Position numbers and translations under genes: made by a program
Shown: positions 7,636 to 59,013 of the stretch, piece after piece
Layout of the letters: the number at the start of each line of letters is the position of its first letter
Numbering within the stretch: position 1 is the stretch's first letter
From: Elusimicrobia bacterium HGW-Elusimicrobia-1
Lineage (GTDB): Bacteria > Elusimicrobiota > Endomicrobiia > PHAN01
Reading direction: 5' to 3'
Assembly: GCA_002841695.1 (NCBI GenBank)
Contig: PHAN01000002.1
Coordinates: 90,807-154,806, forward strand
DNA length: 64,000 nt
Notes under the pieces: generated by a model
The model's input: the letters and a program-made list of their open reading frames with translations, nothing else
Databases searched by the model: none
What the model was told of the DNA's origin: nothing

Positions 7636-7720
7636 AAAATCTCCCCTAACCCCTCTTTTTCAAAGAGGGGGAATAAGGGAACAATCCCCCTTTATTAAAG
7701 GGGGATAAAGGGGGATTTTT
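7636..7720. repeat. P1 palindromic element (AAATCCCCCT...CCCCCTTTnAAAGGGGG...AGGGGGATTT)
   Basis: Terminal inverted repeat aaaatctcccct / agggggatttt enclosing two internal hairpins; same family at 39948, 40383, 50775, 58173. Confidence 0.7.
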
Positions 7721-8849: not shown

Positions 8850-8906
8850 TGTAGGGGGCTTTATGTTCGTAACAAATTTACGTATTTACGCCCTGTAGTG
8901 TAGGGG

Positions 8907-9080
8907 CTTGTCCCCGTAGGCAAAAGGACTTGTCCCCGTAGGCAAAAGGACTTGTCTCCGTAGGCAAAAGGACTTGTCTCCGTAGGCAAAAGGGCTTGTC
9001 CCCGTAGGCAAAAGGGCTTGTCCCCGTAGGCAAAAGGACTTGTCTCCGTAGACAAAAGGGCTTGTCCCCGTAGACAAAAA
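8907..9080. repeat. Tandem repeat, 8 copies of a 22-bp unit (cttgtccccgtaggcaaaagga), ending at the RAYT start codon
   Basis: Eight head-to-tail units with few substitutions, no spacers; first unit overlaps REP-like gtagtgtaggggcttgtcccc. Confidence 0.85.
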
Positions 9081-12215: not shown

Positions 12216-12257
12216 AGTGGTCAGTGGATAGTGGTTAGTAAATAAAACGGATAATAT

Positions 12258-18014: not shown

Positions 18015-18018
18015 GGAT

Positions 18019-19296
18019 ATGAACTTTATCGGATACGTCTACCCTCACATCGGTTACTTCCTGTCGGCGGCTTTTCTGTGGTCACTGACGATGACAGCCG
18101 CCAAACCCCGGGCGATTGCGGCGGCTGTCTCGACCGCAGCGGTTCTGATATGGGTGTTTCCGATACTGTGGCCGACAATCGGGATGGAGTCGCGCGCGAT
18201 CGTCGGGCCGCTTACATTTTTTGCGATATCGGCGATATTCGCCTCGGATTTCTATAAATCACTCGGCCGCGCGGCGAGGGGTTGCGCCGCGAAAATAGAT
18301 GAGATGGGATGCCGGCTCGCCGTCGAAAAAGAGCGACTCGCCGCCGCGACTGCCGGGGCTATTAAGCTTCAGCGAGATCTCGACAAAACGACCGCCGACT
18401 TCGTCGCGGCTAAAGAAACGCTCTCGCAAATGAATAAAGAGGAACTCTGCGAAAATATAACCCGCCTCGTTTCATCGGTCGAGGGAGTGTCGGGCGTCCG
18501 TGTTTTCGACCACAAGGGATCGTGCCTTTCCGCCTTTCCTCGCCTTCCGTCGGAAAGCCACTCGGCCGACGTGCGTGTCTTTTTTGAGAACGGTCCAATG
18601 CCGTCGAACGGAAATTATTTTTTCGGCGCGATATCGGACGGGAACAGGCGGCTCGGCGCGATATTGGCGGAGTTTGTGTCGGCCCCTGCGAGCGACCGCC
18701 TTAGCGCCGTTGAAAATCTATTTTCCGTATTTGCTCTCGGCTATCGCCGCGCGGCGCTCTTTGAAGAGTACGAATCGAAATCGCGCCACGACGCGCTCAC
18801 CGGACTTTTTAACCGGCGTTATTTTTTTCGGAAACTCGACATCGAGATTAAGCGAGCGCACAGATACGGAAGCGGTTTCGCTCTGCTTATGCTCGACGCG
18901 GATAACTTCAAAAAAGTCAACGACACTTACGGACATCCGGCCGGCGATGCGGTGCTCGTCAAAATATCGTCCGTGCTTGCGGCGTTTGAATATCCGGGCG
19001 CTTTCGTCGGAAGGTACGGCGGCGAGGAGTTTGTCGTCTGCCTGCCTTACTGCGATTCCTCAACGGCGCTCGAACAAGCCGAACGCGTGCGACGTTCGAT
19101 AGAGGCCGCGGATTTTTCGGATAATCTTCGGGGAATGATACAATTCCACGTAACGGCGAGCGTCGGCGCGGCCGTATATCCGGATTCAGGCGTTACGGGA
19201 GCGGCTCTATGCGCCGCCGCCGATAATGCTCTCTACGCGGCTAAAGAAAGCGGCAGAAACCGCTCGGTACTCTCAAGTCGCCCGTCCGCGCCATAA
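18019..19296 (+). CDS. Membrane-anchored GGDEF diguanylate cyclase
   Basis: LTGLFNRRYF...MLDADNFKKVNDTYGHPAGDAVL...RYGGEEFVVCLP; N-terminal TM segments. Confidence 0.85.
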   Translation: MNFIGYVYPHIGYFLSAAFLWSLTMTAAKPRAIAAAVSTAAVLIWVFPILWPTIGMESRAIVGPLTFFAISAIFASDFYKSLGRAARGCAAKIDEMGCRLAVEKERLAAATAGAIKLQRDLDKTTADFVAAKETLSQMNKEELCENITRLVSSVEGVSGVRVFDHKGSCLSAFPRLPSESHSADVRVFFENGPMPSNGNYFFGAISDGNRRLGAILAEFVSAPASDRLSAVENLFSVFALGYRRAALFEEYESKSRHDALTGLFNRRYFFRKLDIEIKRAHRYGSGFALLMLDADNFKKVNDTYGHPAGDAVLVKISSVLAAFEYPGAFVGRYGGEEFVVCLPYCDSSTALEQAERVRRSIEAADFSDNLRGMIQFHVTASVGAAVYPDSGVTGAALCAAADNALYAAKESGRNRSVLSSRPSAP

Positions 19297-22628: not shown

Positions 22629-22772
22629 TTAGGGTCTAGGGTTTAGTAAAATGAATAAAAATATAGAAAAGACAGGGTTTAGAAAGGCAGGGTTTAGGGT
22701 TCAGGGTTTAGGGGTTAGGATTTTTGTTTTAATTTTTTTCTATACCCTAACCCCTAAACCCCATGCCCTGCT
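22629..22772. repeat. Leader palindrome P3 (second copy), overlapping start of 22651..23760
   Basis: gttagggtctagggtttagtaaaATG...cagggtttagggttcagggtttaggggttagg...ctataccctaacccctaaaccccatgccctg. Confidence 0.75.
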
Positions 22773-23760
22773 TTTCTCCGCGCCGCGTCACACCATTACC
22801 GTCGACGGCGATTTATCCGAGTGGGCGTCCGACGAAACAAGAGTCGCCGATTCCGCCGACTCCGTATGGGACCCGGGCGCCGGCAAAAACGAGATAAAAA
22901 ATCTCCGCGTCACGTGGGATGCCGAGGCGCTTTACGTGGGCGTCGAGGGAATGGCGACGGACAAAGGTATCCTGTTATATCTCGACAGCGGGCGCGGAGC
23001 GGGTTATTCCGATTTGCGCGAAATAAAAACGTGGAACCGCCGCGTGAGCTTCGAAAACTTTGCGCCCGATTTCTTCTACGGCGCGTGGGACGGCTCCGAC
23101 GGCAATTTTTACAGGTTGAGTTCTTCGTGGAGCGCCGAGAACGTAAGTTCAAAGTGTTCGCTGAAAAACTCTAAAACTTCGGCCGCGGCGGGGTGGGAGA
23201 TGAAGATTCCTTTCGACCTTCTTTATTCGCGCGGGAACGCCGTCGATACCGGGGCGCGCATAAAGATATTCGCCTCCCTTGCCACCGGCGACATAGGTTC
23301 GGCCGCGTCCGGAGATTACGGCTATCTCGGCGGTGACTGCGCGCCGGACAACGAATTGACCGGACTCGGCGACGCCCTGATATCAAATTACGCGCAAGTC
23401 GTCGTCGATTCCGACGGCGACGGCCTGCCCGACGACGCTTTTGCGCGCGCTGCGCTTTCCTTCAGAGAGGTGTCTCTTTCGGAGGTTAAGTTTGCGCCCG
23501 CGCTTCACTCCTTGACGATTTTGCGCGTCGAGGTCACAAAAGAATCTTCGGTCTCGGCGGAAATCTACGGCCTCGACGGAAAAAAAATCAGGACGCTTTC
23601 GGCACAGACCTCCGCCCAAAATTTTGTCCTGAGTTTTTCGTGGGACGGCCGGGACGATTCGGGCGCCGATGTCGCCGGCGGCGTTTACATAATCAATCTG
23701 CGCGCGTCTTCGCTCGACGAAAGCGCGCGTCTTAATAAGGCCGTCGTTGTCATAAGGTGA
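22651..23760 (+). CDS. Secreted protein with CBM9/DOMON-like N-terminal domain and C-terminal FlgD-Ig/T9SS-like domain
   Basis: N-terminal HTITVDGDLSEW...LRVTWDAEALYVGVEG (homologous to 13306 and 40565 N-termini); C-terminus SAEIYGLDGKKIRTL...WDGRDDSGADVAGGVYIINL...VVVIR. Confidence 0.7.
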   Translation: MNKNIEKTGFRKAGFRVQGLGVRIFVLIFFYTLTPKPHALLFSAPRHTITVDGDLSEWASDETRVADSADSVWDPGAGKNEIKNLRVTWDAEALYVGVEGMATDKGILLYLDSGRGAGYSDLREIKTWNRRVSFENFAPDFFYGAWDGSDGNFYRLSSSWSAENVSSKCSLKNSKTSAAAGWEMKIPFDLLYSRGNAVDTGARIKIFASLATGDIGSAASGDYGYLGGDCAPDNELTGLGDALISNYAQVVVDSDGDGLPDDAFARAALSFREVSLSEVKFAPALHSLTILRVEVTKESSVSAEIYGLDGKKIRTLSAQTSAQNFVLSFSWDGRDDSGADVAGGVYIINLRASSLDESARLNKAVVVIR

Positions 23761-23784
23761 TTAAAGGCAGAGGACAGAAACCAG

Positions 23785-23870
23785 AAGGCAGAGATTAAGA
23801 GATTGGGAAATTAGGGAACTACTTTTTAGCGCAATAATCCTCTAATCTCACAATCACCTAATCTCATCTT
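23785..23870. repeat. Hairpin with 7-nt periodic arms (gattaag/agattgg family)
   Basis: gagattaagagattgggaaattaggg ... cctctaatctcacaatcacctaatctc; related arm at 28797-28825. Confidence 0.6.
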
Positions 23871-23876
23871 TTCCGC

Positions 23877-24752
23877 TTGCCGAACTGTGAACTTTTAACT
23901 ATGGACTTTTTCTCTCTTTTCTCGTCGGTGCAGAAATTCCCTGTCTTTGTCTGTGCCGCAATATTCCTCGTTTTATGCCCGACGGACGCGCTGGCCGCTT
24001 TCATCCGTTTCCCGTCCTCAGCGAGGGTGTTGTCGCTGGGCGGCGCCTCGGCGGCGCTTGCCGACGACGCATCGGCCGTGCGCTCCAATCCCGCGGGGAT
24101 GGTTCAATCGGATGGAATCGCTCTCGCCTGCGGCTACGCCGATATCTATGCCGCCGATGGATTGTACCGCGCCGAGACGGCTGCGGTTTATGCGCGCGGC
24201 GCCTCGGCGTGGGGCATCTCGTGGGAGAAACTCGGACTTCAGGGGACTTATGACGAGGACGTCGCGGCTATCGCCTTCGCAAGGCAAATCTCCGACAGTA
24301 CGAGCGTCGGGGCGGCGGTTTCTTCTTACAAAAGTGAAGTCAAGAATTTTACGACGCCGTTTTATAAAGGCCCACGCTCGGCCGCGGGCTTCGCCCTCGG
24401 CGTTTTATGGCAGATTTCCGACGACATACTTGCCGCCGCCGTCGCCGACAACATCAACGAACCGCAGCTTGCCGACGGCGAAAAACTAGCTCAATCGGCG
24501 CGGCTGGGCTTAAGATACCATCCATTTGCGAGCGGTCTTGTAACAGCGGAACACGAAACGGCCGGCAATGTTTTGCGCTGCGGATTTGAGGTCGTCATCG
24601 GCGGAATGCTGCCGGTGCGCGTCGGCGTCGAGCGTGGCCGCCCGACCTTCGGATTCGGCATAGAAACAGGTTTTATCTCGATTGATTTCGCCCTGCTTTC
24701 CGACCATAATCTGGGTCAACTCTACCAGACGGGTGTCAGGATGAAATTATGA
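23877..24752 (+). CDS. Beta-barrel outer-membrane protein, PorV/PorQ- or PorP/SprF-like (start may be ATG 23901)
   Basis: Motif SLGGASAALADDASAVRSNPAGMV near N-terminus, same family signature as 12258..13250. Confidence 0.6.
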   Translation: MPNCELLTMDFFSLFSSVQKFPVFVCAAIFLVLCPTDALAAFIRFPSSARVLSLGGASAALADDASAVRSNPAGMVQSDGIALACGYADIYAADGLYRAETAAVYARGASAWGISWEKLGLQGTYDEDVAAIAFARQISDSTSVGAAVSSYKSEVKNFTTPFYKGPRSAAGFALGVLWQISDDILAAAVADNINEPQLADGEKLAQSARLGLRYHPFASGLVTAEHETAGNVLRCGFEVVIGGMLPVRVGVERGRPTFGFGIETGFISIDFALLSDHNLGQLYQTGVRMKL

Positions 24753-39947: not shown

Positions 39948-40027
39948 AAATACCTCCCCCTTTGGAAAAGGAGGATTGAGGGGGAAATCGGCCTCCCCCT
40001 TTTTAAAGGGGGAAAGAGGGGGATTTT
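39948..40027. repeat. P1 palindromic element
   Basis: aaatacctcccccttttggaaaaggaggattgagggggaaatcggcctccccctttttaaagggggaaagagggggatttt. Confidence 0.7.
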
Positions 40028-40033
40028 AATTTT

Positions 40034-40383
40034 ATGATTTTGCCATACAGTCCCAAGTTAAAATCATATTCAAGAGAATTAAGAAAGAATATGACGGATG
40101 CCGAGAAAAAAATATGGGGAAAACTCCGACGGAAGCAATTAAAGAAATGTCAATTTTACAGACAAAGAGTGATAGGTGAATATATAGTGGATTTTTTTGT
40201 TCCTCCGCCAAATTGGTCATCGAAATCGATGGCGGCCAACACTATACGAAAGATGGTATGGGCAGAGATAAGATCCGTGATGATTACATTAAAAATCTCG
40301 GTGTCAAGATATTAAGATTTACGGACAGAGAAGTTTTACAAAATATTGATTTAGTGGTTGGGCAAATATATGAAAATTTGTAA
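40034..40383 (+). pseudogene. DUF559-family endonuclease-like gene disrupted by a frameshift in a T7 homopolymer (or a homopolymer sequencing error)
   Basis: N-terminal LRKNMTDAEKKIWGKLRRKQL...FYRQRVIGEYIVDFF in frame 1; shifting +1 after the T run gives CSSAKLVIEIDGGQHY...GVKILRFTDREVLQNIDLVVGQIYENL ending at 40383; AT-rich. Confidence 0.7.
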
Positions 40384-40462
40384 AAATCCCCCTGTGTCCC
40401 CCTTTAAAAAAGGGGGATTAAGACATTTCGTCGAGCTCCCCTTTTAAAAAGGGGGAATAGAA
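40383..40462. repeat. P1 palindromic element
   Basis: aaaaatccccctgtgtccccctttaaaaaagggggattaag...gctccccttttaaaaagggggaat. Confidence 0.7.
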
Positions 40463-47803: not shown

Positions 47804-47912
47804 AGGGCAGTGGTTAGTGGCGAGTGGTTAGTGGATAGAAAGGGCAGTGGTTAGTTTTTTGTTTTTACTATCCACTATTCACTAACCACTCGCCACTATA
47901 CACTAGCCACTT
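47804..47912. repeat. P2 hairpin (agtggttagtggatag arms around T-rich loop), terminator-like, downstream of giant gene
   Basis: gggcagtggttagtggcgagtggttagtggatagaaagggcagtggttagttttttgtttttactatccactattcactaaccactcgccactata. Confidence 0.7.
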
Positions 47913-47932
47913 ACTTTTGATTGGAGGAAAAA

Positions 47933-48883
47933 ATGAAAAAATTCTCATCGACAGGGTCATTGTTTATTCTCTTGTTTATCGTTTTTACTATCCACTACCC
48001 ACTAACCACTAACCACTGTCTTTACGCCGCCGGTCTCTCGTCTCCCAACGCCTCGATGTATCTGGGTAACCTTAAAATCGGCCAGACGTATTCACTCAGA
48101 CAACTGCTGGGCTACCCATTCAAAGCCACCTACAAAGGACGCTCAATGGCCGACCTGTCCATAAGCGTGATCGCGCTGTCCACCGCGACATCCGACGGAT
48201 ACGAACCCATCCCGTCCAACGACTGGATAGAAATCGAACGCTCGCATTTCTCTCTCGATCCGGGCCAGACCGCCGAAACCGACATCCTCATAAAAATCCC
48301 CGACGACACCGCGCATCTTGACAAAAAATATATCGTCATAATACAGCCACAGTCGGGCGCGCCGCGCGCCAGCGGAGCGGGCATTGTTTTCGGCACGGCG
48401 CTCAGGTGCCAGTTGCGCCTCGACATAGCCGCGCTTCCTCCCACGCCGGACGAAATCCGGCAGTTACGGCGCCTTCGGCACGGACAGTCGGTCGGTGTGG
48501 TTGTGTCTCCGGAAAGAATTTTCGTAAACGAAATCGAGGCGGGAAAAAAGATAGACGTCAAAAAAACTTTCGGCGATGTTATAAAAATAGTGAACTCGTC
48601 GGATTTCGACGTAGAGGCCGTCATAGAGTCCGCCGACCCCGCCAAGTTCGGGATGTTCGCCCCGTCGGGTTATGAAACCGCCCCCGATCACAAATGGCTT
48701 GTGCCCGCAAAAAGAAAAATCAAGATTCAGAAAAACCGCATAGCCGAGGCGCCGGTTACCATAAACATTCCTTCCGGCCCGGAACACGAGGGGAAAAGCT
48801 ACTATTTCGCCATTGCCGTAACCGTCAAATCGCCCATAAGAGAAGTCAATCATCTGGTCAGATTCTTTGTGGATATGAAGTAG
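47933..48883 (+). CDS. Secreted protein A1 of duplicated two-gene cassette (unknown function)
   Basis: ATG 47933 with GGAGGA 5 nt upstream (track start 47921 is TTG); leader SLFILLFIVFTIHYPLTTNHCLYAA; paralogous to 51140..52039 (NLKIG, GYEPxP, HLxKKY, ISAPSGY shared). Confidence 0.7.
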   Translation: MKKFSSTGSLFILLFIVFTIHYPLTTNHCLYAAGLSSPNASMYLGNLKIGQTYSLRQLLGYPFKATYKGRSMADLSISVIALSTATSDGYEPIPSNDWIEIERSHFSLDPGQTAETDILIKIPDDTAHLDKKYIVIIQPQSGAPRASGAGIVFGTALRCQLRLDIAALPPTPDEIRQLRRLRHGQSVGVVVSPERIFVNEIEAGKKIDVKKTFGDVIKIVNSSDFDVEAVIESADPAKFGMFAPSGYETAPDHKWLVPAKRKIKIQKNRIAEAPVTINIPSGPEHEGKSYYFAIAVTVKSPIREVNHLVRFFVDMK

Positions 48884-48925
48884 CAGTGGTTAGTGAAATA
48901 AAAAAAAGTGGTTAGTGGATAGTAA
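48884..48925. repeat. P2 arm copy
   Basis: gcagtggttagtgaaataaaaaaaagtggttagtggatagt. Confidence 0.6.
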
Positions 48926-48948
48926 AAATGAAAAAGGGGGGGAATAGT

Positions 48949-49326
48949 ATGATAGGAGTTAGGAGTTATAAAGATTTAATAATCTGGCGAAAAAGTATGG
49001 AACTTGTAAAAATTGTGTACAAAGCGACCAGTAGTTTCCCGCAAAAAGAATTATTCGGATTGACAAATCAGATGAGAAGGGCAGCCGTATCGATACCTTC
49101 AAATATAGCGGAAGGGCAGGCCAGAAACCATACGAAAGAATTTGTGCAGTTTCTGTATCAGGCGTTGGGCTCCCTGGCGGAACTTGATACACAGGCAATA
49201 ATAGCCAAGGAACTGGGTTATCTAAAAGCAGTGGATAGTGGTGAGTGGATAGAAAGACAAACTGCCGAACTTCAAAAGATGACACACGGCCTACTCAAAA
49301 AACTAACCGCTATAGACAGTGGATAG
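48949..49326 (+). CDS. Four-helix-bundle protein (family formerly called 23S rRNA intervening-sequence protein)
   Basis: SYKDLIIWRKSMELVKIVYK...FGLTNQMRRAAVSIPSNIAEGQAR...ELDTQAIIAKELGYL; AT-rich; start at ATG 48949 after GGGGGG SD preferred over 48928. Confidence 0.8.
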   Translation: MIGVRSYKDLIIWRKSMELVKIVYKATSSFPQKELFGLTNQMRRAAVSIPSNIAEGQARNHTKEFVQFLYQALGSLAELDTQAIIAKELGYLKAVDSGEWIERQTAELQKMTHGLLKKLTAIDSG

Positions 49327-49410
49327 TGGCGAGTGGTTAGTGGATAGAAAGGGCAGTGGTTAGTTTTTTGTTTTTACTATCCACTATTCACTAACCACTA
49401 ACCACTGCCC
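49318..49410. repeat. P2 hairpin, terminator-like
   Basis: gggcagtggttagttttttgtttttactatccactattcactaaccactaaccactgccc (13-bp perfect outer stem). Confidence 0.7.
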
Positions 49411-49668
49411 CTAAAAAACCCTTGACTTTATATAATTATTTTGCTATATACTGTATATCAAACAGGAAGCATACTTCTTAATTTAACATCTTGAATAAAA
49501 TGAGACGTGGGTTGGCCCGCCGAAGAAGGGCAGGAGGTGAAAAAAGGTCGTATGATTCAATCTTTAAAAAGCAATAGAGAAAAAGAGCTCGCGGCGTCGG
49601 TGGTGACGGAGTGCGCACCGTCATCCGTGACAGGCGCGGGCAAAAATCAAAAGGAAGAGGGAGGATTT

Positions 49669-50349
49669 ATGAAGAAGCTATTTTTTATGCTTCTGGCCGC
49701 CTCCGTCGTGGGGCTTTTTGCCTCGACGGTAAAGGCAGCCGACTGGGACAACGCCTACGTCGTAGTGCGTTGCACGGTTAACGTGTCGGTTGATGTCGCC
49801 CCCACAGGCACAGACAACGCCTGGGTGCCATACATCAACGACGCGCCGGGTACCGGACCGTACAACGGCGGTGTCAATCAGATATATGTGTCGACGGGTG
49901 TGGCCGTGAGGAACACAAGTTCTGGTGCCATAACCAACTGGACGCTCCATTTGGTATCGACGCAGACCTATTCGGCTACGCCTGATATAGCCGATTTCGC
50001 CAACACGACGACCGCATATCCGGACTGGACGTACGGCAACAATCTTACGGCCAATGGCCCAAACAAGATTGTAATCGCCGCTGTTTTCAAGAGTAATCCC
50101 GCCGTCTTGGGCGATTACAACGACCTGGACGTGCTCTTCTCCACGGGCACGGTCTATAAGACAGGTTCGGCAGATTTAGGCCCCGCTGCCGACGAATATT
50201 TCGGCGCTGTAGCCAGCGGTAACAACCTGAATATGGTCGCGCCGACAGACACAAGGAACCTGTACTTCAGGGTTCTGACGCCCTCGGCCGTTACGGACAG
50301 TATGTATCGTAAGTTCGAGGTATTGGTCAAGGCCGGTTTAGGTCTATAA
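49669..50349 (+). CDS. Secreted protein B1 of duplicated cassette (beta-sandwich-like, unknown function)
   Basis: ATG 49669 after aaggaagagggagg; signal peptide MKKLFFMLLAASVVGLFASTVKA; paralog of 52272..52955 (AYVVVRCTVNV vs AYITLRCTATV; VRNTSSGAITNWTL vs VRNSGVGSIANWTL). Confidence 0.7.
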   Translation: MKKLFFMLLAASVVGLFASTVKAADWDNAYVVVRCTVNVSVDVAPTGTDNAWVPYINDAPGTGPYNGGVNQIYVSTGVAVRNTSSGAITNWTLHLVSTQTYSATPDIADFANTTTAYPDWTYGNNLTANGPNKIVIAAVFKSNPAVLGDYNDLDVLFSTGTVYKTGSADLGPAADEYFGAVASGNNLNMVAPTDTRNLYFRVLTPSAVTDSMYRKFEVLVKAGLGL

Positions 50350-50630
50350 AGATTAGTCACAGCAGTTTAAGGTCAGCGTAAGTTGGTCTTTGGTATCCCG
50401 CCGTAGTCCGGCGGGACTCCATAGGTTAACAAAATTACTCCCCGTAGAGGTAGACTTCCGTGTCCGCCATCATGGACGCGAATGTTTTCGGGTGTCATTT
50501 TCCCGAGACGTTTGCGACCCCGGAATTATCGGTGGCGCCGATGAAGTCGGCGCCCCATCTGTTTAAAGATTATTTTGCCGTCGCGGCTATGCGCCCGACG
50601 GCTTTTGTTTTTTATAGCCGAATAAACGAT

Positions 50631-51000
50631 TTTGCCGGCGGATGCGGTTGTCTATTCTCTACGGGGAGAAAAAACATCACCCATTCGCCGGCCTTCTTTT
50701 TTGCGGAGCGGAGGTCTATCTCTACGGGGAGAAACGCCTGCCGCTCCGCTTACTATTTTGCAGAAACGCGTCGGGAAAATCCCCCTGTATCCCCCTTTAA
50801 AAAGGGGGAATATCGCACCTCCCCCTTTGGAAAAGGGGGACTGAGGGGGATTTCAAAAAACCATTTTGCCGGCGGACCGGAAGTTTGCCTCTACGGGGAG
50901 TGCATCACTACCGGTCCCGCCGGCTTACTTTTTTTTGCGGACGGACACGAACGTCGAACCTCTACGGGGAGGCAGTACGCATCGCCCGTCCGCATCTTTT
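50631..51000 (+). repeat. Array of four ~70-bp hairpin units with conserved loop motif CTCTACGGGGAG and covarying stems, interrupted by a P1 element (50775-50853)
   Basis: Loops at 50657, 50721, 50890, 50961; stems gccggcg/cgccggc, gcggagcgg/ccgctccgc, gccggcggaccgg/ccggtcccgccggc, gcggacgg/ccgtccgc; each unit followed by a T run; reverse-complement motif ctccccgtagag at 50438. Confidence 0.7.
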
Positions 51001-51056
51001 TCGGGGGGCGTACGAGCCGCCCCTTCAACTATCGGGGGCGGACACGGTTGTCTATT

Positions 51057-51090
51057 ATCGGAGTTTATCCCCGCGAAGGCGGGGAGGGAG
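51057..51090 (+). promoter_or_regulatory. Conserved leader motif TCGGAGTTTATCC-hairpin-GGGAGGGAG, ~50 nt upstream of start codon
   Basis: tcggagtttatccccgcgaaggcggggagggag; copies at 56353-56384 and 58101-58136 with compensatory stem changes. Confidence 0.5.
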
Positions 51091-51139
51091 AAAAACACCG
51101 CCGCGTACCGCCCCCATATTTTCTTATCGGAGAAATATT

Positions 51140-52039
51140 ATGACTAAAAATGTTTTCACCCCGCTTGCTCTGCTGATTTTATCGGCATTTATTGCGCCGC
51201 GCGGTTTGGCGGCGGCCTCGATTGCCACCAATTACTCCGACGTTTACGTGGACAATCTTAAAATCGGCGGCTCCTACAATCTTACGGCCACCGCCAATTA
51301 TCCTATGTGGATATTGTGGAAAGGCGGCGACAGGGCGCTGATAAAAGTGACGCCGAAACTGCCTTTCAAGGAAGTTATGCGCGCGGGATACGAACCCGTG
51401 CCCGATATTTCGTGGATAACGGTTTCAAAAAAAGAGTTTGAACTGATGAGCGACGAAACGGCCAATATCGACGTAACGGTAAACGTGCCAAACGACCCGA
51501 AACATCTGGGCAAAAAATATCAGGCGCTCGTCGAGGTTTCGGCAAATCCGCCCAAGGGTTCGCCCGGCGTCTCGATTGCCCTTGCCGTAAACGGGAAGAT
51601 ACTTATGAGCGTGGCCGGCAAGCCGCCGACCGAAGAGGAATTGTCCGAATTAAGGCGCGAACGAATACGCGCAAGGCGGGGGGTGATCATTGAGCCGGAG
51701 CGGCTTGAGGCATCGGTAAAAGCGGGGGGCATCAACGCCGAATTAACGGCCGACGAACCGCTTAAAATTATCAATTCGTCGAGGGAAAAAGTGTCCGTGA
51801 CGATAGAATCCGTCGCGCCCGAAGTCGCCGGGATATCGGCGCCGTCGGGATATGCCAAGGGCGCGGCCAAGGACATAAGTTTTTCAAAGACGTCGGCGTC
51901 TCTTGAGCCGGACAAGATTGAAAATATCGGAGTGTTTCTCAGGAAAGTGCCGTCGGACAAGTCGTTTTATATTGTCAGAATAACCATAAAGTCGCAGACG
52001 CTTGAAGTCGCAAAATTCGTGAGGGTTTATGTCAACTGA
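51140..52039 (+). CDS. Secreted protein A2 of duplicated cassette (paralog of 47933..48883)
   Basis: ATG 51140 preferred over track start 50885, which lies in the repeat array; signal peptide MTKNVFTPLALLILSAFIAPRGLAAA. Confidence 0.7.
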   Translation: MTKNVFTPLALLILSAFIAPRGLAAASIATNYSDVYVDNLKIGGSYNLTATANYPMWILWKGGDRALIKVTPKLPFKEVMRAGYEPVPDISWITVSKKEFELMSDETANIDVTVNVPNDPKHLGKKYQALVEVSANPPKGSPGVSIALAVNGKILMSVAGKPPTEEELSELRRERIRARRGVIIEPERLEASVKAGGINAELTADEPLKIINSSREKVSVTIESVAPEVAGISAPSGYAKGAAKDISFSKTSASLEPDKIENIGVFLRKVPSDKSFYIVRITIKSQTLEVAKFVRVYVN

Positions 52040-52042
52040 GAA

Positions 52043-52162
52043 AAAGTGGGTAGTGGATAGTGACGAGTGGTTATGGGTAGTGGATAGTGGCGAGTGGTTA
52101 GTGGATAGAAAGGGCAGTGGTTAGTTTTTTGTTTTTACTATCCACTAATCACTATCCACTCT
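52043..52162. repeat. P2 hairpin cluster, terminator-like
   Basis: agtgggtagtggatagtgacgagtggttatgggtagtggatagtggcgagtggttagtggatagaaagggcagtggttagttttttgtttttactatccactaatcactatccact. Confidence 0.7.
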
Positions 52163-52271
52163 CTTTAAAGGAGGCAGTATGAACGGTTTAAGTCGTTTCA
52201 AAGATGTCCCGCAAACGGTGCGGGAAACAAAATCAAGTCCCCCGACGGAAACGCGGGGACAGGGAGGCAGT

Positions 52272-52955
52272 ATGTTTTACAAAGTGAAATCCCGCATAGC
52301 GGGATTCGGAAAGTTGTTGTTGTTATCGGCGGCAGCCGTTGGTCTGGGCGCCATTTCGGCGTCTCAGGCGCAAGCGGCCACGACCGCATCGGCGTATATC
52401 ACGCTGAGATGCACGGCCACCGTCGCCATAGAATTGTTCAGCGGCGGGTCACTTCCGACCTCCGCGACCTTCTATGATTTCGGCGAAGTCGGGGCCGCGG
52501 GCGTTTACGTCTCGGCTAATCCCGTGGGCGTAAGAAACAGCGGAGTGGGTTCCATAGCCAATTGGACGCTCGACATCACGGAAATTACGCAGGACGGCGG
52601 AGCCAGCGCGTGGGTCATAGGAAACACGCCGGGGCTTAACAGAATGACGCTTCACGCAAAGTTCTCGACGAACACGCTTACGTCAGGCGACTTTGATGTG
52701 GCGCTGGATACTGTTTCCACGACGGCTCAGGGCGCCAAGGCCTATCGCCTCGACGTGGTGAACGGCAGCCATTTCTATGACCAGATAGCATCTTATGTCG
52801 AGTCGTCATTCAGTCCCAACGCGTCCAAGGTGCTTCCGGCCAGCTATAGCGCGACGAAGTCCGAGCGTCATATGTGGCTCAAGCTCCAGACGCCTACGGC
52901 ATTTGAAAACGCCAACGCCCTTACAGCCATAACGCTGAGGGTCAGCGCTTACTAA
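52272..52955 (+). CDS. Secreted protein B2 of duplicated cassette (paralog of 49669..50349); alternative start ATG 52179
   Basis: GGGAGG before ATG 52272; signal peptide MFYKVKSRIAGFGKLLLLSAAAVGLGAISASQAQA. Confidence 0.65.
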   Translation: MFYKVKSRIAGFGKLLLLSAAAVGLGAISASQAQAATTASAYITLRCTATVAIELFSGGSLPTSATFYDFGEVGAAGVYVSANPVGVRNSGVGSIANWTLDITEITQDGGASAWVIGNTPGLNRMTLHAKFSTNTLTSGDFDVALDTVSTTAQGAKAYRLDVVNGSHFYDQIASYVESSFSPNASKVLPASYSATKSERHMWLKLQTPTAFENANALTAITLRVSAY

Positions 52956-53077
52956 AAGAAGGCGGAGCGGCAAATCGTCCGCGCCGCGCGCAAAGTCCGT
53001 TTTATCATATTGCGCGCCAAGCGAGACAGGATTTCCGTTTTCCGTCGATGTCTCCTTTGTAACAGGGAGTCGCATCG

Positions 53078-56000
53078 GTGAAAAGGAATAAATCTCTTTC
53101 CACTATCTTCTTAAGAGCGCTGCTGACAGGGATTATAGCGGCTCACGGGGCTCCTATGCCCTCGATGCTGTACGCCGCCCCCGTTACGCTTCGCGGCTCA
53201 CCGCCTTACGCGGGACCGCCGAACAGAGTCACGTCCATCATCGCCGCTCCCGATTTTTCAGCGCCGGAAGCGGAGGGGAAAATAAAGTTGAACTGGACGG
53301 CTCCGTCGGACGCCGGAGGTCTGGACGTTTTCTCCTACATAGTCAAGTACGCGACTTTTTCCGTCGCGGATATGGGAGGGGACAAAGACGCCTGGTGGGA
53401 TCATCCGCAATGTATAACCGCCTTTGATCCGGAACTAAACGTTCGCTGGGGCAAAAAATCTCTCGTGTCGTCGCAAGGAAACGAAATAATATCGGTATCC
53501 GGCCTTGAATCCGGAACGTATTATTATTTCGCGGTCAAGTCCGTCGACAGATACCACAGATTCTCCGTCTGGGACATACCTTACGACGGTGTATCCTCGC
53601 AAAGCAACGCTTACGCCACCACTCCGCCGTGGCAGCCCTACATAGTCACAACGCTTGCGGCAGAACCTATGGCGGCAATAAGAGCGGCGGCAATGCTTGA
53701 ATGGTTCGCGCCTTTGTTTGTGGAGAATAATCCGCCTTACGAAATTCTTCCCGGTCACATAAAACAACTCGGACAGTACTGCATCCAGTATTCTACGGCG
53801 CCTCCGCCCGAGCCCGTCAACAGACCCAACCAGCCGAACAACTGGGCGGCTTCTCAAAGAATCATAGTATCCACACGCAACGTCCAATCGGGCGACCTGC
53901 AAAACTACGTCCTTACGGGACTCTCGCACAATACCACCTATTACGTCCATCTTTTCACCAAAAACGAATGGCCTAACAAGTGGTCTTATGCGTCATACCC
54001 AGTCACTACGGTGCGGCCTTACATAGACCTCTCGCCCGTGGACGATCTCGTCGCTACCGCGTCGGCGTCCGCCGACAACGATATAGCCAGTTTCGTCACG
54101 CTTTCGTGGGAAAATCCCGAAAACGAGCAGTTCTTCGCCGGCGCGCGCGTGGGATATTCCACGTCGTCGTATCCGTCATCGCCCGATTCCGGAAATTATT
54201 TTGATGTAGAACCTCTTGCGTCCGGCACATCCACCGACTACGCGCATATCCGTTTGCTGCCGCGGCATAATTATTATTACTCCGTTTGGGCGTACGACTC
54301 CAACCACTTCTACTCCTCGCCGCGCAATGCGCAAACGTTCACATCGTTCGATATAAATCCGCCCGCCGGCGTCAAAAATATAACGTCCTTCGTCGATGTT
54401 TCTACCGACGGAGACGAAGACGCCTATGCCATACGCCTGGCGTGGAGCGCGCCGGACGCATCGGCCGCTATGCTTTACAGGAATATCGACTTTGACAGAG
54501 TCAGGGTCTATGTCAGCACGACCTCGGCCGACCCCGCCGACCACGTGTATCTCTCGACGGCCTCCGCCTCCGAGACGGCGTTTATTCATTCAGGCGCGGC
54601 GCCCTACACGACATACTATTACTCGTTTGCGAGTGTAGACGCAATCTCAAACGAGCAGACGGCCGTAGAGCGCTCGACTCACTCGGTCTATATCTGCGAA
54701 GATCACGTGCCGCCGTCGGCTCCGACTATTGTAACCCATCTCTATACCGCTTCGCGCGAATACGCCGACGGCTGCAAAGTCGCGCTCACGTGGCGAGCTC
54801 CGCCGGAATCGCATTTTGCGCGTATAGTCGCCAGAATATCGCTCGACGGCTTCCCGCTGTCCGTTTCCGACGGCGACGCGCTTACGGAATGGACCGGACT
54901 GCCCGACGCGACCGGCTCCGCGGAATTTAAGCGGCTTGTATCGCTTACCACCAATTACATATCGCTGTTTGCCGTCGCCGAGCGCGGCGCGGCGTCGCGG
55001 CCGGCTAAGGTCGCGGTCTACACTGATATTCCGTGGACGGATACCGTCTCGCCGCACGTGCCGCGCGACGTCAGGATTTCGTCATCGCGCAGGGTTACGT
55101 GGAGCCCCGTGAAATACGACGCTAACCTGGCGGCCATACCCAACTATGCGACGCCGCGCACTGACCAGATTTACTTCTACGAAATCCTCAAATCTACGTC
55201 GATGAAAGGCCCCTGGATCGTCGGAGACAGAATGAATCCGTCGCTGACTTTCTGCGACATCGCCGCGGCGGCGACCGGATATTACAAGATACGGGCCGTC
55301 GACGCGGGACGCAACTGCGCCGACTCATACGCCTTCGACCTCGACGGCAACATATACGTCGCCGCGGGCGATTCAAGCTACGTGAAAGTGCCGGCGGACA
55401 TCGTTTCGTCCTTGCGCACGCCGTCGAATCCGGCCAAGGATTCGCATCTGCTTTCGCTTTCGCGCGTTCCCGCCGACGAGAAAGGCATAATCTATAAGTC
55501 CGTGGAGTTCCGCTCGTCGGCCATATCCGAGACGTCCGACGCTATGCGGCTCCAAGACGTCCCCGGGTTCTCTCTGGGCGCGCCCGGAGCGAAACTGGCG
55601 TTCAGCTATGATACGGACAGAGATTCCGTCGCCGTCGCCGCGCCCTCGCGCAAAGCGCCGTCGCGCCCGGAGATACAGTCGCAGCTCGGAGTGTTCTATT
55701 ACAACGGGGTCGAGTGGCAGAGGATAAATCTCTCGGCTGCCGCGCCCGACGGCTATGTTATCTCGTCCGTGCGGTTCGCGGGCAAATATCAACTCCGCCG
55801 CGCCGCCTCTACGGGCGAGTTCGCTTTCTACGATGCCGTCCCGCGAATCATCACGCCCAATAACGACGGTATCAACGACAGGGCGATGTTCCGCTTTGCC
55901 AATCCGCAGGGACGCTCGATTACGCTTAAAATTTACGACATCAATTCCGTTCTTGTAAGAGACATAGGCGAGACAACGGCCGCGTCGGACACGCCCGGCG

Positions 56001-56119
56001 AGCATATATTCTGGGACGGTCTCGACGACAACAATCGCATCGTCGCGCCCGGCGTCTATGTTTATCAGTTGGAACTTGAAGAAAAAATTATCAACGGCAC
56101 CATAGTGGTGGCCAGGTAA
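53078..56119 (+). CDS. Large FN3-containing surface protein with C-terminal FlgD-Ig/T9SS type-B-like domain (GTG start)
   Basis: 1013 aa; FN3 signatures GTYYYFAVKSVDRYHRFS, TTYYVHLFTKNEW; C-terminus RIITPNNDGINDRAMFRF...ITLKIYDINSVLVRDI...WDGLDDNNRIVAPGVYVYQL...TIVVAR. Confidence 0.75.
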   Translation: MKRNKSLSTIFLRALLTGIIAAHGAPMPSMLYAAPVTLRGSPPYAGPPNRVTSIIAAPDFSAPEAEGKIKLNWTAPSDAGGLDVFSYIVKYATFSVADMGGDKDAWWDHPQCITAFDPELNVRWGKKSLVSSQGNEIISVSGLESGTYYYFAVKSVDRYHRFSVWDIPYDGVSSQSNAYATTPPWQPYIVTTLAAEPMAAIRAAAMLEWFAPLFVENNPPYEILPGHIKQLGQYCIQYSTAPPPEPVNRPNQPNNWAASQRIIVSTRNVQSGDLQNYVLTGLSHNTTYYVHLFTKNEWPNKWSYASYPVTTVRPYIDLSPVDDLVATASASADNDIASFVTLSWENPENEQFFAGARVGYSTSSYPSSPDSGNYFDVEPLASGTSTDYAHIRLLPRHNYYYSVWAYDSNHFYSSPRNAQTFTSFDINPPAGVKNITSFVDVSTDGDEDAYAIRLAWSAPDASAAMLYRNIDFDRVRVYVSTTSADPADHVYLSTASASETAFIHSGAAPYTTYYYSFASVDAISNEQTAVERSTHSVYICEDHVPPSAPTIVTHLYTASREYADGCKVALTWRAPPESHFARIVARISLDGFPLSVSDGDALTEWTGLPDATGSAEFKRLVSLTTNYISLFAVAERGAASRPAKVAVYTDIPWTDTVSPHVPRDVRISSSRRVTWSPVKYDANLAAIPNYATPRTDQIYFYEILKSTSMKGPWIVGDRMNPSLTFCDIAAAATGYYKIRAVDAGRNCADSYAFDLDGNIYVAAGDSSYVKVPADIVSSLRTPSNPAKDSHLLSLSRVPADEKGIIYKSVEFRSSAISETSDAMRLQDVPGFSLGAPGAKLAFSYDTDRDSVAVAAPSRKAPSRPEIQSQLGVFYYNGVEWQRINLSAAAPDGYVISSVRFAGKYQLRRAASTGEFAFYDAVPRIITPNNDGINDRAMFRFANPQGRSITLKIYDINSVLVRDIGETTAASDTPGEHIFWDGLDDNNRIVAPGVYVYQLELEEKIINGTIVVAR

Positions 56120-56162
56120 AGATAAAGAAGTGAATAGTGATTAGTGGATAGTAAAAGAAAAA

Positions 56163-56274
56163 ACAAGAAGCAAGATAAACCGTCATTCTGAGCGAAGCGA
56201 AGAATCCTCGTCATCTTCCGGCGAAGAATCCTCGCCATACTCTAACAAGATCCTTCGCTTCGCTCAGGATGACA
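56163..56274. repeat. Palindromic element (gtcattctgagcgaagcgaag ... cttcgcttcgctcaggatgac)
   Basis: Near-identical copy at 58838-58957. Confidence 0.7.
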
Positions 56275-56352
56275 GATAACAAGAATTTTATGGACAATAA
56301 CAAATATATTTATCGGCGCGTCGCTTCATCGGCGGGCAAACCCAAGTCAATC

Positions 56353-56384
56353 TCGGAGTTTATCCCGCCACAGGCGGGAGGGAG
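56353..56384 (+). promoter_or_regulatory. Conserved leader motif (second copy)
   Basis: tcggagtttatcccgccacaggcgggagggag, 53 nt upstream of ATG 56437. Confidence 0.5.
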
Positions 56385-56436
56385 ATTCTCTGTTTTGTCC
56401 GCCGACGAGGCGATGCCGTCTTCAAAGGAGCATTTT

Positions 56437-58074
56437 ATGAATACACTTATTAAAATCATCAAAAAATTTCCGCCGCCGTCGTCATTGTTTATTCTCTTGT
56501 TTATCGTTTTTACTATTCACTATTCACTATCCACTATTCACCCTCTTTACGCCGCATTCGAGGATATTTCCGTCGGCGGACGTCCCGCGGCTTTTTCCGG
56601 CGCGTATACAGCGGTCGAAGGCGACGCGTATTCCATCTACTACAATCCCGCGGCGCTTGCGGGTATGGCAAGGGCCGAGTTCGGCGCGCAATATTCCAAA
56701 CTTCATACGGGGCTTACGGACGGTTCGGAACTCTCCAACGCTTTTTTCGGCGTGGCGCAGCCGCTTAAATTCGGCTCGGCCGATTACGGCACAATCGGCG
56801 CGGGATGGATAAGATTCGACCTTGCGGAACTTTATCAGGAAAATACTATAATCTTGTCCTGGGCGCGTGACATTGTAAAGAACAAACTTTCCTTCGGATT
56901 CGGCGCCAAAATGCTCTCTATTACCTACGGCGAAAACGACTACACCAAAAACGCCTTCGACAACGAGGGCAACACGACCGGCGCGGCGGACCCGCTTTTC
57001 AACTATGGCTATATCAAATCCGCCGCCGACTTCGACGCCGGAATAAGATACGCTTTCGCCAAAAATTACGCCGTGGCCGCCGTCGCGCAGAATCTGGCGG
57101 GCGCAAATATATCGCTCGTCAACGACCCCAATGTCGCGCTGCCGCGTCGTTACCGTTTCGGCCTTGCTCACACCGGCAAGGCCTACGCGCTTTCGGCCGA
57201 TGTCGCGGGCGCTTCGGACTCTTCGGTAGTGCGCGGAATGGTCGGCGTCGAAAAAAGTTTCGACTTCGGTGGCGCCCTGAGGGCCGGGCTGGGAATGGGC
57301 ACCGACGGATGGGCCAATATCGCCGGCGGTTTCGGATTCAAAGCCGACGCCCTCAGCTTCGATTACGGCCTCGCATGGCCGTTGTCGGGCATAAAGAACA
57401 CTTCAGGCAGTCACAGGGTCTCGGTGAATTTCAAATTCGGGCCCGTTATGCGCCACCCCGAATCCGACTCGGAAACGCAGGTGCGCCTGGCGCAGGAAAT
57501 TACCGCCCGCAAAGAGTACGAGCAGAAATACAGGGTGTCCGAGATAGAACTCGCCCGCGCTAGAGAAGAGATAAGACAGCTCAAAAATCAGATAGAGGAA
57601 TTGCTCAAGCGTCCGTCGGCTCCCATACCGGCGCCAAGAGAAATCGCGTCGCCCAAGCCGACGGTTACGGAGACGCCCGCGGCCGTCAAACCCGGCGTAA
57701 CGCCGGCCGCGCCCGCTATGCCCACCGATATCGACGCTTTGAGAGCCGCTTATGCCAAAGAATTCAACCAGTATCAGCGCGACGCTTCCAAAATGGATAT
57801 TAAGCAGCGCATCGCGGCGGTTGACGTCATAGTCGCGCGTTATCAGGGCAAGATAAAGATAACCGAAGCCGTCGACGAACAGATGATACTCAGGAATGAA
57901 TTCGCCGCGCAGACCAAGTTCTATAACGACGCGCTTACTTACTACAAACGTCTCGTACGGCAGGGTATATCCGTCGAGGAGCGCAAGGACATACTCAATC
58001 GCATGATAACCAAGTACCAGGTGCTCGGCGTCGATGTAACTGTCGCCAAAGAGGAGCTTAAGACGGTAAAATAA
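56437..58074 (+). CDS. Beta-barrel OMP (PorV/PorQ- or PorP/SprF-like) with C-terminal coiled-coil/Pro-rich extension
   Basis: ATG 56437 after aaaggag (track start 56269 lies in repeat); leader SLFILLFIVFTIHYSLSTIHPLYAA; motif GRPAAFSGAYTAVEGDAYSIYYNPAALAG; C-terminal EIELARAREEIRQLKNQIEELLKRPSAPIPAP. Confidence 0.6.
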   Translation: MNTLIKIIKKFPPPSSLFILLFIVFTIHYSLSTIHPLYAAFEDISVGGRPAAFSGAYTAVEGDAYSIYYNPAALAGMARAEFGAQYSKLHTGLTDGSELSNAFFGVAQPLKFGSADYGTIGAGWIRFDLAELYQENTIILSWARDIVKNKLSFGFGAKMLSITYGENDYTKNAFDNEGNTTGAADPLFNYGYIKSAADFDAGIRYAFAKNYAVAAVAQNLAGANISLVNDPNVALPRRYRFGLAHTGKAYALSADVAGASDSSVVRGMVGVEKSFDFGGALRAGLGMGTDGWANIAGGFGFKADALSFDYGLAWPLSGIKNTSGSHRVSVNFKFGPVMRHPESDSETQVRLAQEITARKEYEQKYRVSEIELARAREEIRQLKNQIEELLKRPSAPIPAPREIASPKPTVTETPAAVKPGVTPAAPAMPTDIDALRAAYAKEFNQYQRDASKMDIKQRIAAVDVIVARYQGKIKITEAVDEQMILRNEFAAQTKFYNDALTYYKRLVRQGISVEERKDILNRMITKYQVLGVDVTVAKEELKTVK

Positions 58075-58100
58075 TATATCGGCGGGACACGGGGTCTACA

Positions 58101-58136
58101 TCGGAGTTTATCCCGCCATAGGCGGGTGGGGGGAGG
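58101..58136 (+). promoter_or_regulatory. Conserved leader motif (third copy, diverged)
   Basis: tcggagtttatcccgccataggcgggtggggggagg. Confidence 0.4.
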
Positions 58137-58172
58137 AAAGAACACCCGCTGTCCCGCCGGAAAAGCAAATTA

Positions 58173-58268
58173 GAAATCCCCCTGTATCCCCCTTTTAAAA
58201 GGGGGGTTGAAAGAGATTGTCGGGTGAAGTTCATCCCCCTTTGAAAAAGGGGGAAAGAGGGGGATTTA
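58173..58268. repeat. P1 palindromic element
   Basis: gaaatccccctgtatcccccttttaaaaggggggttgaaag...catccccctttgaaaaagggggaaagagggggattt. Confidence 0.7.
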
Positions 58269-58336
58269 ATGTTGGCGGCTATATTCCGGATTTTTGTCAG
58301 GCGAATAAAGGTAATTTTATGATATGAGGCACAATT

Positions 58337-58702
58337 ATGAAAATAAATAAAACATTCTCAGCCGTAATGGCCGCGCTTGTCGCCTGCGCTTGTCTTGCCG
58401 CGCCGGCGCCGGCCGAGTTCCGTCTCGTCGATGTAAAGCCGCGCGTGCTTACGCCCGGCGGCTCGTCGGGTTTCAACGACCGCGTAATATTTTCTTTCGT
58501 CGAGCCGGACGAAAAGCTCACTTTAAGAATATTCACTCTCGACGGCAGAAAGATAGAGGAAATTGATTACGGCGCGGCCGGAACGGAACGTCTCGTCTGG
58601 AACGCCTGCGCCGCGGGGTCAATGGTGTCGCCCGGCGTTTATATTTATCAGCTTGAAGCCGACGGAAAAGTTTTTTCGGGGACATTGGTGGTGGCAAGAT
58701 AA
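58337..58702 (+). CDS. Small secreted protein consisting essentially of a FlgD-Ig/T9SS-like C-terminal domain
   Basis: Signal peptide MKINKTFSAVMAALVACACLAAPAPA; LTLRIFTLDGRKIEEI...WNACAAGSMVSPGVYIYQLEADGKVFSGTLVVAR. Confidence 0.65.
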   Translation: MKINKTFSAVMAALVACACLAAPAPAEFRLVDVKPRVLTPGGSSGFNDRVIFSFVEPDEKLTLRIFTLDGRKIEEIDYGAAGTERLVWNACAAGSMVSPGVYIYQLEADGKVFSGTLVVAR

Positions 58703-58705
58703 AAT

Positions 58706-58957
58706 AAAGTGATTAGTGGCGAGTGGTTAGTGGTTAGTAAAAGAAAAAGCAAAATGTCATTCCCGCGCCGCGCCGTAGGCGATGCTCCGCAAATGCGGGG
58801 CTGTGGGAACGCGGAAATCCAGAGCAATTAAATAGAGTCAAGAAGCGAGAGTCAAGATAAATCGTCATTCTGAGCGCAGCGAAGAATCCCCGTCATATTC
58901 CGGCGGGGAATCCTCGCCATACTCTAAGAGGATCCTTCGCTTCGCTCAGGATGACAG
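58706..58957. repeat. Composite repeat: P2 arm, gtcattcccgcg palindrome, and gtcattctgagcg...cgctcaggatgaca palindrome
   Basis: agtgattagtggcgagtggttagtggttagt; gtcattcccgcgccg...ggaacgcggaaatccagag; gtcattctgagcgcagcgaagaatcc...ggatccttcgcttcgctcaggatgacag. Confidence 0.7.
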
Positions 58958-59013
58958 CTAAGGTGTTTATGGTTTGTTATTCTCAATGAGAAGCAAGAGG
59001 CGGGAATGATATT

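Follow-up and report, generated by a model that had tools for sequence, protein, structure and literature searches.

A syntenic family of hairpins with exchangeable tips in a surface-protein gene cluster of an Elusimicrobiota genome

The window, by which we mean the whole 64-kb stretch of DNA analysed here, contains a cluster of surface-protein genes that opens with a gene for a giant secreted protein, a gene resembling gene B (see below), an inserted gene for a 23S-rRNA-intervening-sequence protein (IVP) and gene A (49507..50349, + strand). Gene A encodes a secreted protein without a Pfam match, is a paralogue of gene C (52179-52955) and is the probable major-subunit gene. In the middle of the cluster lie an inverted hairpin copy, a degenerate hairpin, a terminator (T0) and an array of direct hairpin copies, followed by gene B (51140..52039, +; also secreted and without a Pfam match, paralogue of 47921-48883), which is the first gene 3' of the array, by gene C and by a gene for a type 9 secretion system (T9SS) cargo-like protein with fn3 and a CHU_C C-terminal domain (53078..56119, +). 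The cluster ends with a further hairpin (copy 2), the gene for a PorP/SprF-family outer-membrane protein (56437..58074, +; PF11751), another hairpin (copy 3), a gene for a small secreted, CTD-like protein with weak CHU_C/FlgD_ig similarity (58337..58702, +), a histidine kinase, a receiver-only response regulator and a giant DUF2341 protein. Cargo with a type B CTD encoded beside a PorP-like gene is a known T9SS arrangement (PMC9143113). Neither an RNA-binding regulator nor a NusG paralogue is encoded in the 64-kb window. Elsewhere in the window, secreted proteins with an FlgD_ig-CTD are paired with FadL/UPF0164-like outer-membrane proteins (9528-13250 and 22651-24752), without members of the hairpin family, and two GGDEF genes are adjacent to each other (16623-19296). 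As for the IVP genes (window 48928-49326; related locus L014 1486-1839, 9633-10004 and 12572-12925), whose products are four-helix bundles with weak likeness to bAvd, they occupy different intergenic sites of the cluster in different lineages and behave like small mobile cassettes.

Our starting point was the 13-mer TCGGAGTTTATCC, which an earlier note had picked out, together with a hairpin, at three sites. The 64-kb window holds exactly three exact matches, all on the + strand (51058, 56353 and 58101), so that the observation stands with the first start moved from 51057 to 51058. Matches with one or two mismatches (2625, 20768, 24224, 30348, 40117) lack the hairpin, fall in coding or unrelated sequence and were set aside as chance. 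The three exact copies are each followed by an inner hairpin with a 6-bp GC stem, namely CCCCGC-GAAG-GCGGGG in copy 1 (51069-51084), CCCGCC-ACA-GGCGGG in copy 2 (56364-56378) and CCCGCC-ATA-GGCGGG in copy 3 (58112-58126). At two positions of the stem, copy 1 departs from the other two copies, each time with a compensating change in the partner base; the compensatory change reported earlier is thus real, while the third hairpin had been misread as ending in gcgggt. The compensation was read directly from the sequence, as MAFFT/RNAalifold runs on the five long copies known in total misaligned the unequal loops. Copies 1 and 2 continue with GGGAGGGAG, in whose place copy 3 has TGGGGGGAGG. Formerly taken for a possible binding site, GGGAGGGAG turns out to consist of two G's and the 3' strand of an apical CUC/GAG helix, whose GAG closes the tip by pairing with CTC; copy 3 does not preserve GGGAGGGAG.

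Each copy of the 13-mer is the tip of a larger hairpin of 77-95 nt, with a long GC-rich outer stem that varies in sequence from copy to copy and keeps its complementarity. A conserved stretch, GTCTA..(A/C)TC, connects the outer stem with the flagged motif. Compared with dinucleotide shuffles, the folds reach z-scores of -3.0 (51034-51115), -5.7 (56320-56414) and -4.2 (58080-58159). Copy 1 (51034..51115, +; outer stem GGGGGCGG/CCGCCCCC; tip module 51058-51090, +) is the last unit of the array and is followed by ATATTTTCTT, a ribosome-binding site (RBS) and the ATG of gene B (51140). Copy 2 (56320..56414, +) pairs 56329-56340 with 56394-56405 in its outer stem, extended to 56320/56414, has its tip module at 56353-56384 (+), carries no T tail and precedes the ATG of porP/sprF (56437). 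Copy 3 (58080..58159, +; outer stem CGGCGGGACA/TGTCCCGCCG; tip module 58101-58136) begins 6 nt 3' of the porP/sprF stop codon (58074); ~200 nt, which include a promoter-like site, separate it from the following ATG (58337).

Upstream of copy 1, a 790-nt intergenic region accommodates the array, and here a second tip form prevails. Its 12-mer, CTCTACGGGGAG, has five exact matches against 0.2 expected, all within 50410-50993, four of them direct and one inverted. The direct ones form the tips of four hairpins with T-rich 3' tails (50634-50692, 50703-50749, 50868-50924 and 50937-50993, all +). Among the 10 nt after the stem, the array copies including copy 1 have 5-8 T's and the single copies 0-3. 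A GC-rich stem followed by a U tract, as in intrinsic terminators, is therefore found in the array copies, whereas copies 2 and 3 and their orthologues lack the U tract; a generic terminator scanner misses the array copies because their stems are long and interrupted. The inverted copy (50410..50471, - strand) contains the 31-mer GGCGGACACGGAAGTCTACCTCTACGGGGAG, which the window, L008 and L015 share without a difference; L014 has it with two differences, and in L016 it is partly N-gapped. Read on the + strand, this copy is complementary to the conserved 5' half and the tip of all direct copies. Between it and the array lie the degenerate hairpin and T0, a canonical intrinsic terminator (50577..50615, +; stem 50577-50602 plus a T run) with counterparts in L008, L015 and L016. 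A search for sigma-70-like promoters around the array, the interval between T0 and the array included, yielded nothing convincing, so that transcription of the array would rely on read-through of a good terminator. Gene-caller ORFs of 223-504 aa over the array were considered and dismissed: the invariant 12-mer falls into different reading frames between copies (50657, 50720 and 50960 versus 50889 in the window; mixed frames in L016), which makes these ORFs spurious, several frames are open at once, and the covarying stems likewise speak against coding. The array is also split by a MITE-like element (50762-50868), flanked by the 7-nt direct repeat ATTTTGC (50755-50761 and 50863-50869) and absent from the syntenic array of L008, and hence a recent insertion.

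Taken as a whole, the element is built of a GC-rich, covarying outer stem, a conserved 5' internal half (CACGGAAGtc.TAC) and an apical mini-helix CUC...GAG. In the short form, this helix is capped by UACG, giving the tip CUCUACGGGGAG and the 12-mer CTCTACGGGGAG; in the long form, it is capped by a 25-nt module, GGAGUUUAU plus the 6-bp hairpin. The earlier proposal of a shared 5' UTR RNA element was correct in that the feature is structured, non-random, common to several intergenic regions of one cluster and located on the sense strand. The unit, however, is not a stem-loop plus GGGAGGGAG but a 50-95 nt hairpin, which in 33 of 38 copies carries the family-defining CTCTACGGGGAG. Copies 1 and 2, whose outer stems end 24 and ~23 nt before the ATG, must lie in the mRNA of the downstream gene.

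We built a covariance model (R1) on the short form and searched the window and five related loci with it (E<0.006), which returned 33 sense copies. In the alignment of these copies, 96% of the cells are paired, as measured on an alignment fitted to the model itself, compared to 44-61% in slid controls. Seven of the nine outer-stem pairs are changed on both sides (34 cells), which none of 500 shuffles attained. The 12-mer of the tip is invariant in all 33 copies, an invariance that is partly one of ascertainment, since copies were collected by a pattern allowing at most one mismatch and then used to train the model. Conservation is lopsided, with 0.89 bit per column in the 5' internal half (consensus CACGGAAGttnTAC) and 0.24 in the 3' half; together with the conserved tip, this suggests that one side of the hairpin may be recognised in a sequence-specific manner. 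In 26 of 34 elements, the fold of the sense strand is more stable than that of the antisense strand (Wilcoxon p = 0.0003), a modest bias is seen in outer-stem pairs (16 G-U versus 9 A-C), and all copies but one are oriented as the genes. Between orthologues, the outer stems differ by one compensatory substitution and one or two changes from G-C to G-U, with no pair broken in direct copies, albeit in small numbers; the predicted inner pairs are not conserved between orthologues, in numbers too small to carry weight.

As to its distribution, the family is narrow. R1 matches are confined to 50.4-58.2 kb of the window and to syntenic sites in L013-L017; there was no match in the other ~56 kb of the window, despite the two other cargo/outer-membrane protein pairs there, and none in L009-L011 or in L018, whose PorP/SprF is 34% identical. 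A pattern scan of public genomes gave six matches, among which L008 is the sole family member; those in L005-L007 lie inside ORFs and were discarded, and those in L009 and L010 represent the tip module in another hairpin. A scan of metagenomes returned only the unrelated GTAGGTCGGGGTTTATCCCCGA repeat, and one of viral sequences returned no match. Rfam 15 at gathering thresholds had no match across the whole window, and at E values up to 10 (50300-58400 and L008) it gave only spurious miRNA/snoRNA-type matches far below threshold. A literature search with the core sequence retrieved only primers and unrelated sequences. L008 comes from an Endomicrobiia metagenome-assembled genome (MAG) and is syntenic with 50411-51005 of the window at 79-84% identity; L013-L016 are syntenic loci that were found via homologues of the outer-membrane protein (PorP/SprF 60-76% identical), and L017 is the same strain in a JGI assembly (99.94% identical).

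Conservation in relatives, which the earlier note had named as a test, was found, in that related elements occupy the same positions there. L008 and L013-L017 all carry short-tip hairpins, and wherever sequence is available 3' of the gene A homologue (window, L008, L014, L015 and L016), an array of 4-8 units is found there. At the copy-2 site 5' of porP/sprF, the window, L013 and L016 have a hairpin, L015 and L019 (the latter from the same MAG as L008) have nothing, and L014 has an IVP gene; copy 2 is thus dispensable, as three related lineages lack a hairpin there. The copy-3 site 3' of porP/sprF is occupied in the window, L014, L015 and L016, and empty in L013. Such gain and loss of single copies is in keeping with DNA that is dispensable or mobile. 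N gaps inside elements occur in two JGI scaffolds, namely at the copy 2 tip in L017 (9960-9969) and in the inverted copy in L016 (4016-4097), due either to repeat-induced assembly breaks or to population heterogeneity at the tips. The former is an N10 gap on scaffold Ga0246098_00070, within the stretch that corresponds to 56353-56384 of the window.

The comparison of orthologues also revealed what the flagged motif is. In L013, the arms and flanks of the copy 2 orthologue are identical to those in the window, and its tip reads CTC-TACG-GGGAG, versus CTC-GGAG+21 nt-GGGAG in the window. Conversely, the short copy at 50703 of the window has an orthologue in L008 with a long tip. The orthologues of copy 3 in L015 and L016 combine a short tip with the same outer stem (TCGGCGGGACACGG...), and L014 has a short-tip copy at the same intergenic site. 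The orthologue of copy 1 in L008 (518-601) is long, and its inner hairpin has changed from CCCCGC/GCGGGG to CCCGAC/GTCGGG with pairing kept. Since orthologous hairpins with identical arms can bear either tip, the flagged motif is a swappable tip module of ~25 nt and, judged from these alignments, the two tip forms are allelic versions of a single element. The motif is a tip variant and should not be catalogued as a separate 'GGGAGGGAG 5' UTR motif' element. Long tips occur only in the lineage of the window and its closest relative, L008. The short-tip model scores the long copies weakly (11-21 bits; 20.9 bits for copy 1; 10-13 bits for copies 2 and 3 with filters off), and the membership of copies 2 and 3 therefore rests on the orthologous alignments.

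We conclude that the hairpins constitute a lineage-restricted, previously undescribed family of structured elements whose kind is known (intergenic terminator, attenuator or REP-like hairpins); their serial architecture, the conserved tip on free stems and the exchangeability of the tip appear to be new. With regard to function, we favour, as a reading about as apt to be right as wrong, that they act as sense-strand RNA elements, i.e. serial attenuators and intercistronic sites that would be read through the conserved 5' half and tip by a putative partner. We infer that they are transcribed within the sense mRNA of this one surface-protein/T9SS cargo cluster. The 4-8 U-tailed array copies would serve as serial intrinsic terminators or attenuators, allowing gene A to be expressed far above the downstream genes, and the invariant tip with the conserved 5' half would present a recognition surface, through which a partner acting in trans may modulate formation or fate of the hairpins. 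This candidate partner might be a protein or a complementary RNA from the inverted copy just 5' of the array; the inverted copy is the only partner candidate visible in the sequence, and a putative protein is equally possible. The tail-less single copies around porP/sprF could be intercistronic sites at which this partner binds the mRNA or affects its processing or stability, and through which it would couple the genes there to the array.

Several known systems resemble this arrangement in part. As in intrinsic terminators and attenuators, a GC-rich stem base is followed by a U-rich tract, and the array sits between the probable major-subunit gene and downstream genes. Unlike these, however, the present hairpins have interrupted stems of 20-25 bp, are invariant in their 12-nt tip and conserved in their 5' half, and come 4-8 in series; members without a U tail are found elsewhere in the operon, and no antiterminator is known. 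The kissing loops of CopA/CopT and RNAI/RNAII offer another parallel, as the inverted copy would likewise give an RNA hairpin complementary to the tips and 5' halves of the direct copies, whose conservation is concentrated on the very part complementary to it. Here, though, the elements are chromosomal, one anti-copy faces many targets, and the pairing is predicted from sequence. A bolder version of the RNA reading, which we regard as speculative and rather doubtful, would make the family a previously undescribed class of regulatory RNA, in which up to eight serial terminators are opened or stabilised by a dedicated partner, possibly an anti-hairpin RNA, and in which the tip is modular and mobile. 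The target of such a system would be an Endomicrobiia operon for T9SS cargo/PorP surface proteins, and its tip module (a UACG tetraloop or the 25-nt GGAGUUUAU-hairpin module) would move between hairpins and be nested in hairpins of other phyla as well.

If the elements do act as RNA, they would represent a cis-regulatory motif family outside Rfam with serial terminators, free stems and an exchangeable apical module, and would provide a handle on the stoichiometry of T9SS cargo, PorP/SprF and the subunit cluster in uncultured Elusimicrobiota. If they are selfish DNA instead, they would exemplify a mini-palindrome targeted to hairpin tips together with a repeat family that stays inside one operon. 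The latter is the main rival explanation, possible though on balance unlikely: selfish or neutral palindromes of the REP/BIME or MITE type would have spread locally as single-stranded DNA hairpins, their tip being the recognition or cleavage site of a Y1/HUH-type enzyme, the long tip a nested mini-palindrome and termination a mere by-product. The genome is indeed full of nested palindromes, and the array itself is split by a MITE-like insertion. Besides, a Y1_Tnp gene lies directly 3' of the L008 array (on one side of it only) and another at 9080-9538 of the window, single copies are present or absent between lineages, tips are swapped at orthologous sites, and assemblies break at the elements. 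Nearly the same tip module recurs in three hairpins of two genomes (copies 2 and 3 of the window and the copy of L008), and an unrelated hairpin from a Vampirovibrionales MAG encloses a module matching at 28 of 33 nt. REP/BIME sequences are likewise intergenic, clustered palindromes in both orientations, and can affect termination and mRNA stability. On the other hand, the present hairpins have variable, compensated stems under an invariant tip, the opposite of REP families, lack a GTAG foot and hold syntenic positions. Rather than being dispersed, they occur within one gene cluster at every locus seen (50.4-58.2 kb of the window and the syntenic sites in L013-L017), and the Y1_Tnp gene of the window is flanked by different, GTAG-type repeats (GTAGTGTAGGGG). 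Synteny persists at ~60% protein identity, with the 31-mer of the inverted copy identical in three lineages, and both the gene-wise orientation of all copies but one and the folding bias towards the sense strand speak against this rival.

With regard to the repeats touched on here, the IS200-like/RAYT-like Y1 transposase gene of the window (9080-9538) is 27% identical to the Y1_Tnp beside the L008 array; its region (8860-9600) has about ten tandem 22-nt repeats (GGGCTTGTCCCCGTAGGCAAAA) 5' of the gene, and GTAGTGTAGGGG-type inverted repeats flank the gene. A link between the hairpin family and this region (8860-9538) was considered on account of a shared TACGGGGA and judged coincidental, the flanking repeats belonging to another family. 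The long-tip module also occurs once each in L010 (5227-5258, -; Vampirovibrionales MAG) and L009 (3143-3173, -; a MAG labelled Gammaproteobacteria, just 5' of a GIY-YIG gene). This module, TCGGAGTTTATCCCTGCGAAGGCGGGG, is identical to copy 1 at 28 of 33 nt and sits in the apex of different hairpins (GGATTCCCG[...]GCGGGAAT and GGACCCCCG[...]GCGGGGGT).

Another alternative, which we hold to be improbable, is a sponge of the CsrB/RsmZ type, where the array tips (UACGGGGAG) would titrate a CsrA-like repressor, the single copies would be its sites on the mRNAs of porP/sprF and neighbouring genes, and the long tip would add CGGAG and GGGAGGGAG as GGA/SD-like motifs. As in CsrB/RsmZ, tandem hairpins display the same apical sequence with a GGA in it, long tips have three times as many GGA motifs, and surface-structure genes are typical Csr targets. 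The CsrA SELEX consensus is RUACARGGAUGU, to which the tip can be likened (UAC..GGA..GU). Yet there is no Rfam match to CsrB, CsrC or Rsm RNAs, Csr sponge hairpins have much shorter stems, the GGA lies partly in the predicted apical helix rather than in a loop, and an independent promoter for the array was not found.

Less probable still is the model derived from the earlier note, in which TCGGAGTTTATCC, the hairpin and GGGAGGGAG would form a 5' UTR element at a fixed distance to the start codon, by way of which a factor or the ribosome would co-regulate translation of the secreted-protein genes downstream. It was right about the spacing in two copies, as the G-run of copies 1 and 2 ends 50 nt (51140) and 53 nt (56437) before the ATG. 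Moreover, the 13-mer is invariant in four of the five long copies, and UUAUCGGAG of copy 1 is repeated in the ribosome-binding region of gene B (51122-51130). Nevertheless, the comparison of orthologues largely refutes this model. The distance is not fixed, as 42 nt lie between the end of the tip and the ATG in L016 and 78 nt in L013. Copy 3, which follows a stop codon and is separated from the next gene by the promoter-like site, lies just 3' of porP/sprF, as do its orthologues, and most copies belong to the array, far from any ATG. Orthologous hairpins at the same sites are short-tipped and devoid of the motif, which is found in two closely related lineages only, and GGGAGGGAG is lost in copy 3.

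Sites of DNA recombination or inversion (inverton, shufflon or attC-like), with the inverted and direct copies as crossover points, would accord with the identical 12-bp core of these copies, the cassette-like layout of paralogous gene pairs and the structure-conserving hairpins of variable sequence known from attC, but are very improbable given that the cluster has no recombinase gene, that all five lineages agree in the orientation of the interior, that the arms lie ~40 nt apart and differ between copies where recombinases need conserved ones, and that the conserved bases are at the tip and not at the foot as in attC R/L boxes, without RYYYAAC/GTTRRRY cores. Integron attC sites in particular do not fit, as the hairpin feet have no R''/R' cores, no ORFs lie between the array units and there is no integrase Pfam match. 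The ops element of RfaH/NusG (GGCGGTAGnnTG) shares with the 5' arm GGCGGACACGGA only GGCGG and the G at position 10, and no NGN/KOW protein is encoded in the window. The type I-E CRISPR repeat is GAGTTCCCCGCGCCAGCGGGGATAAACCG, and the minus strand of the copy 1 tip, CCCCGC-CTTC-GCGGGG-ATAAAC, has the same stem and the same start of the 3' handle. This similarity is probably convergent; what we found are three solitary, nested copies 5.3 and 1.7 kb apart, without spacers and without cas genes in the window.

Several other repeats were noticed in the neighbourhood. The MITE-like element of ~100 nt has terminal inverted repeats AAATCCCCC...GGGGGATTT and internal CCCCCTTTAAAAAGGGGG hairpins, and its copies in the window lie at 50762-50868, 58165-58270, 39952-40023, 40381-40460 and 7636-7719. 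Intergenic heptamer palindromes (AGTGGTT/AGTGGAT/AGTGGCG with the complement CCACTAT...) flank most genes of the cluster as well as the inserted IVP gene (47809-47927, 48900-48931, 49230-49422, 52045-52176, 56129-56160, 58715-58746 and, further away in the window, 12216-12394), and their complement arm extends into the predicted signal-peptide coding regions of the genes at 47921 and 56437; L014 has analogous palindromes made of other heptamers (AGAGGTT/AGAGGAC). Finally, a 122-nt repeat with a long nested palindrome (GTCATTCTGAGCGAAGCGAAGAATCC ... GATCCTTCGCTTCGCTCAGGATGAC) is present at 56158-56279 and 58840-58961 (89% identical), in one case just 5' of copy 2 and in the other 5' of the histidine kinase gene.
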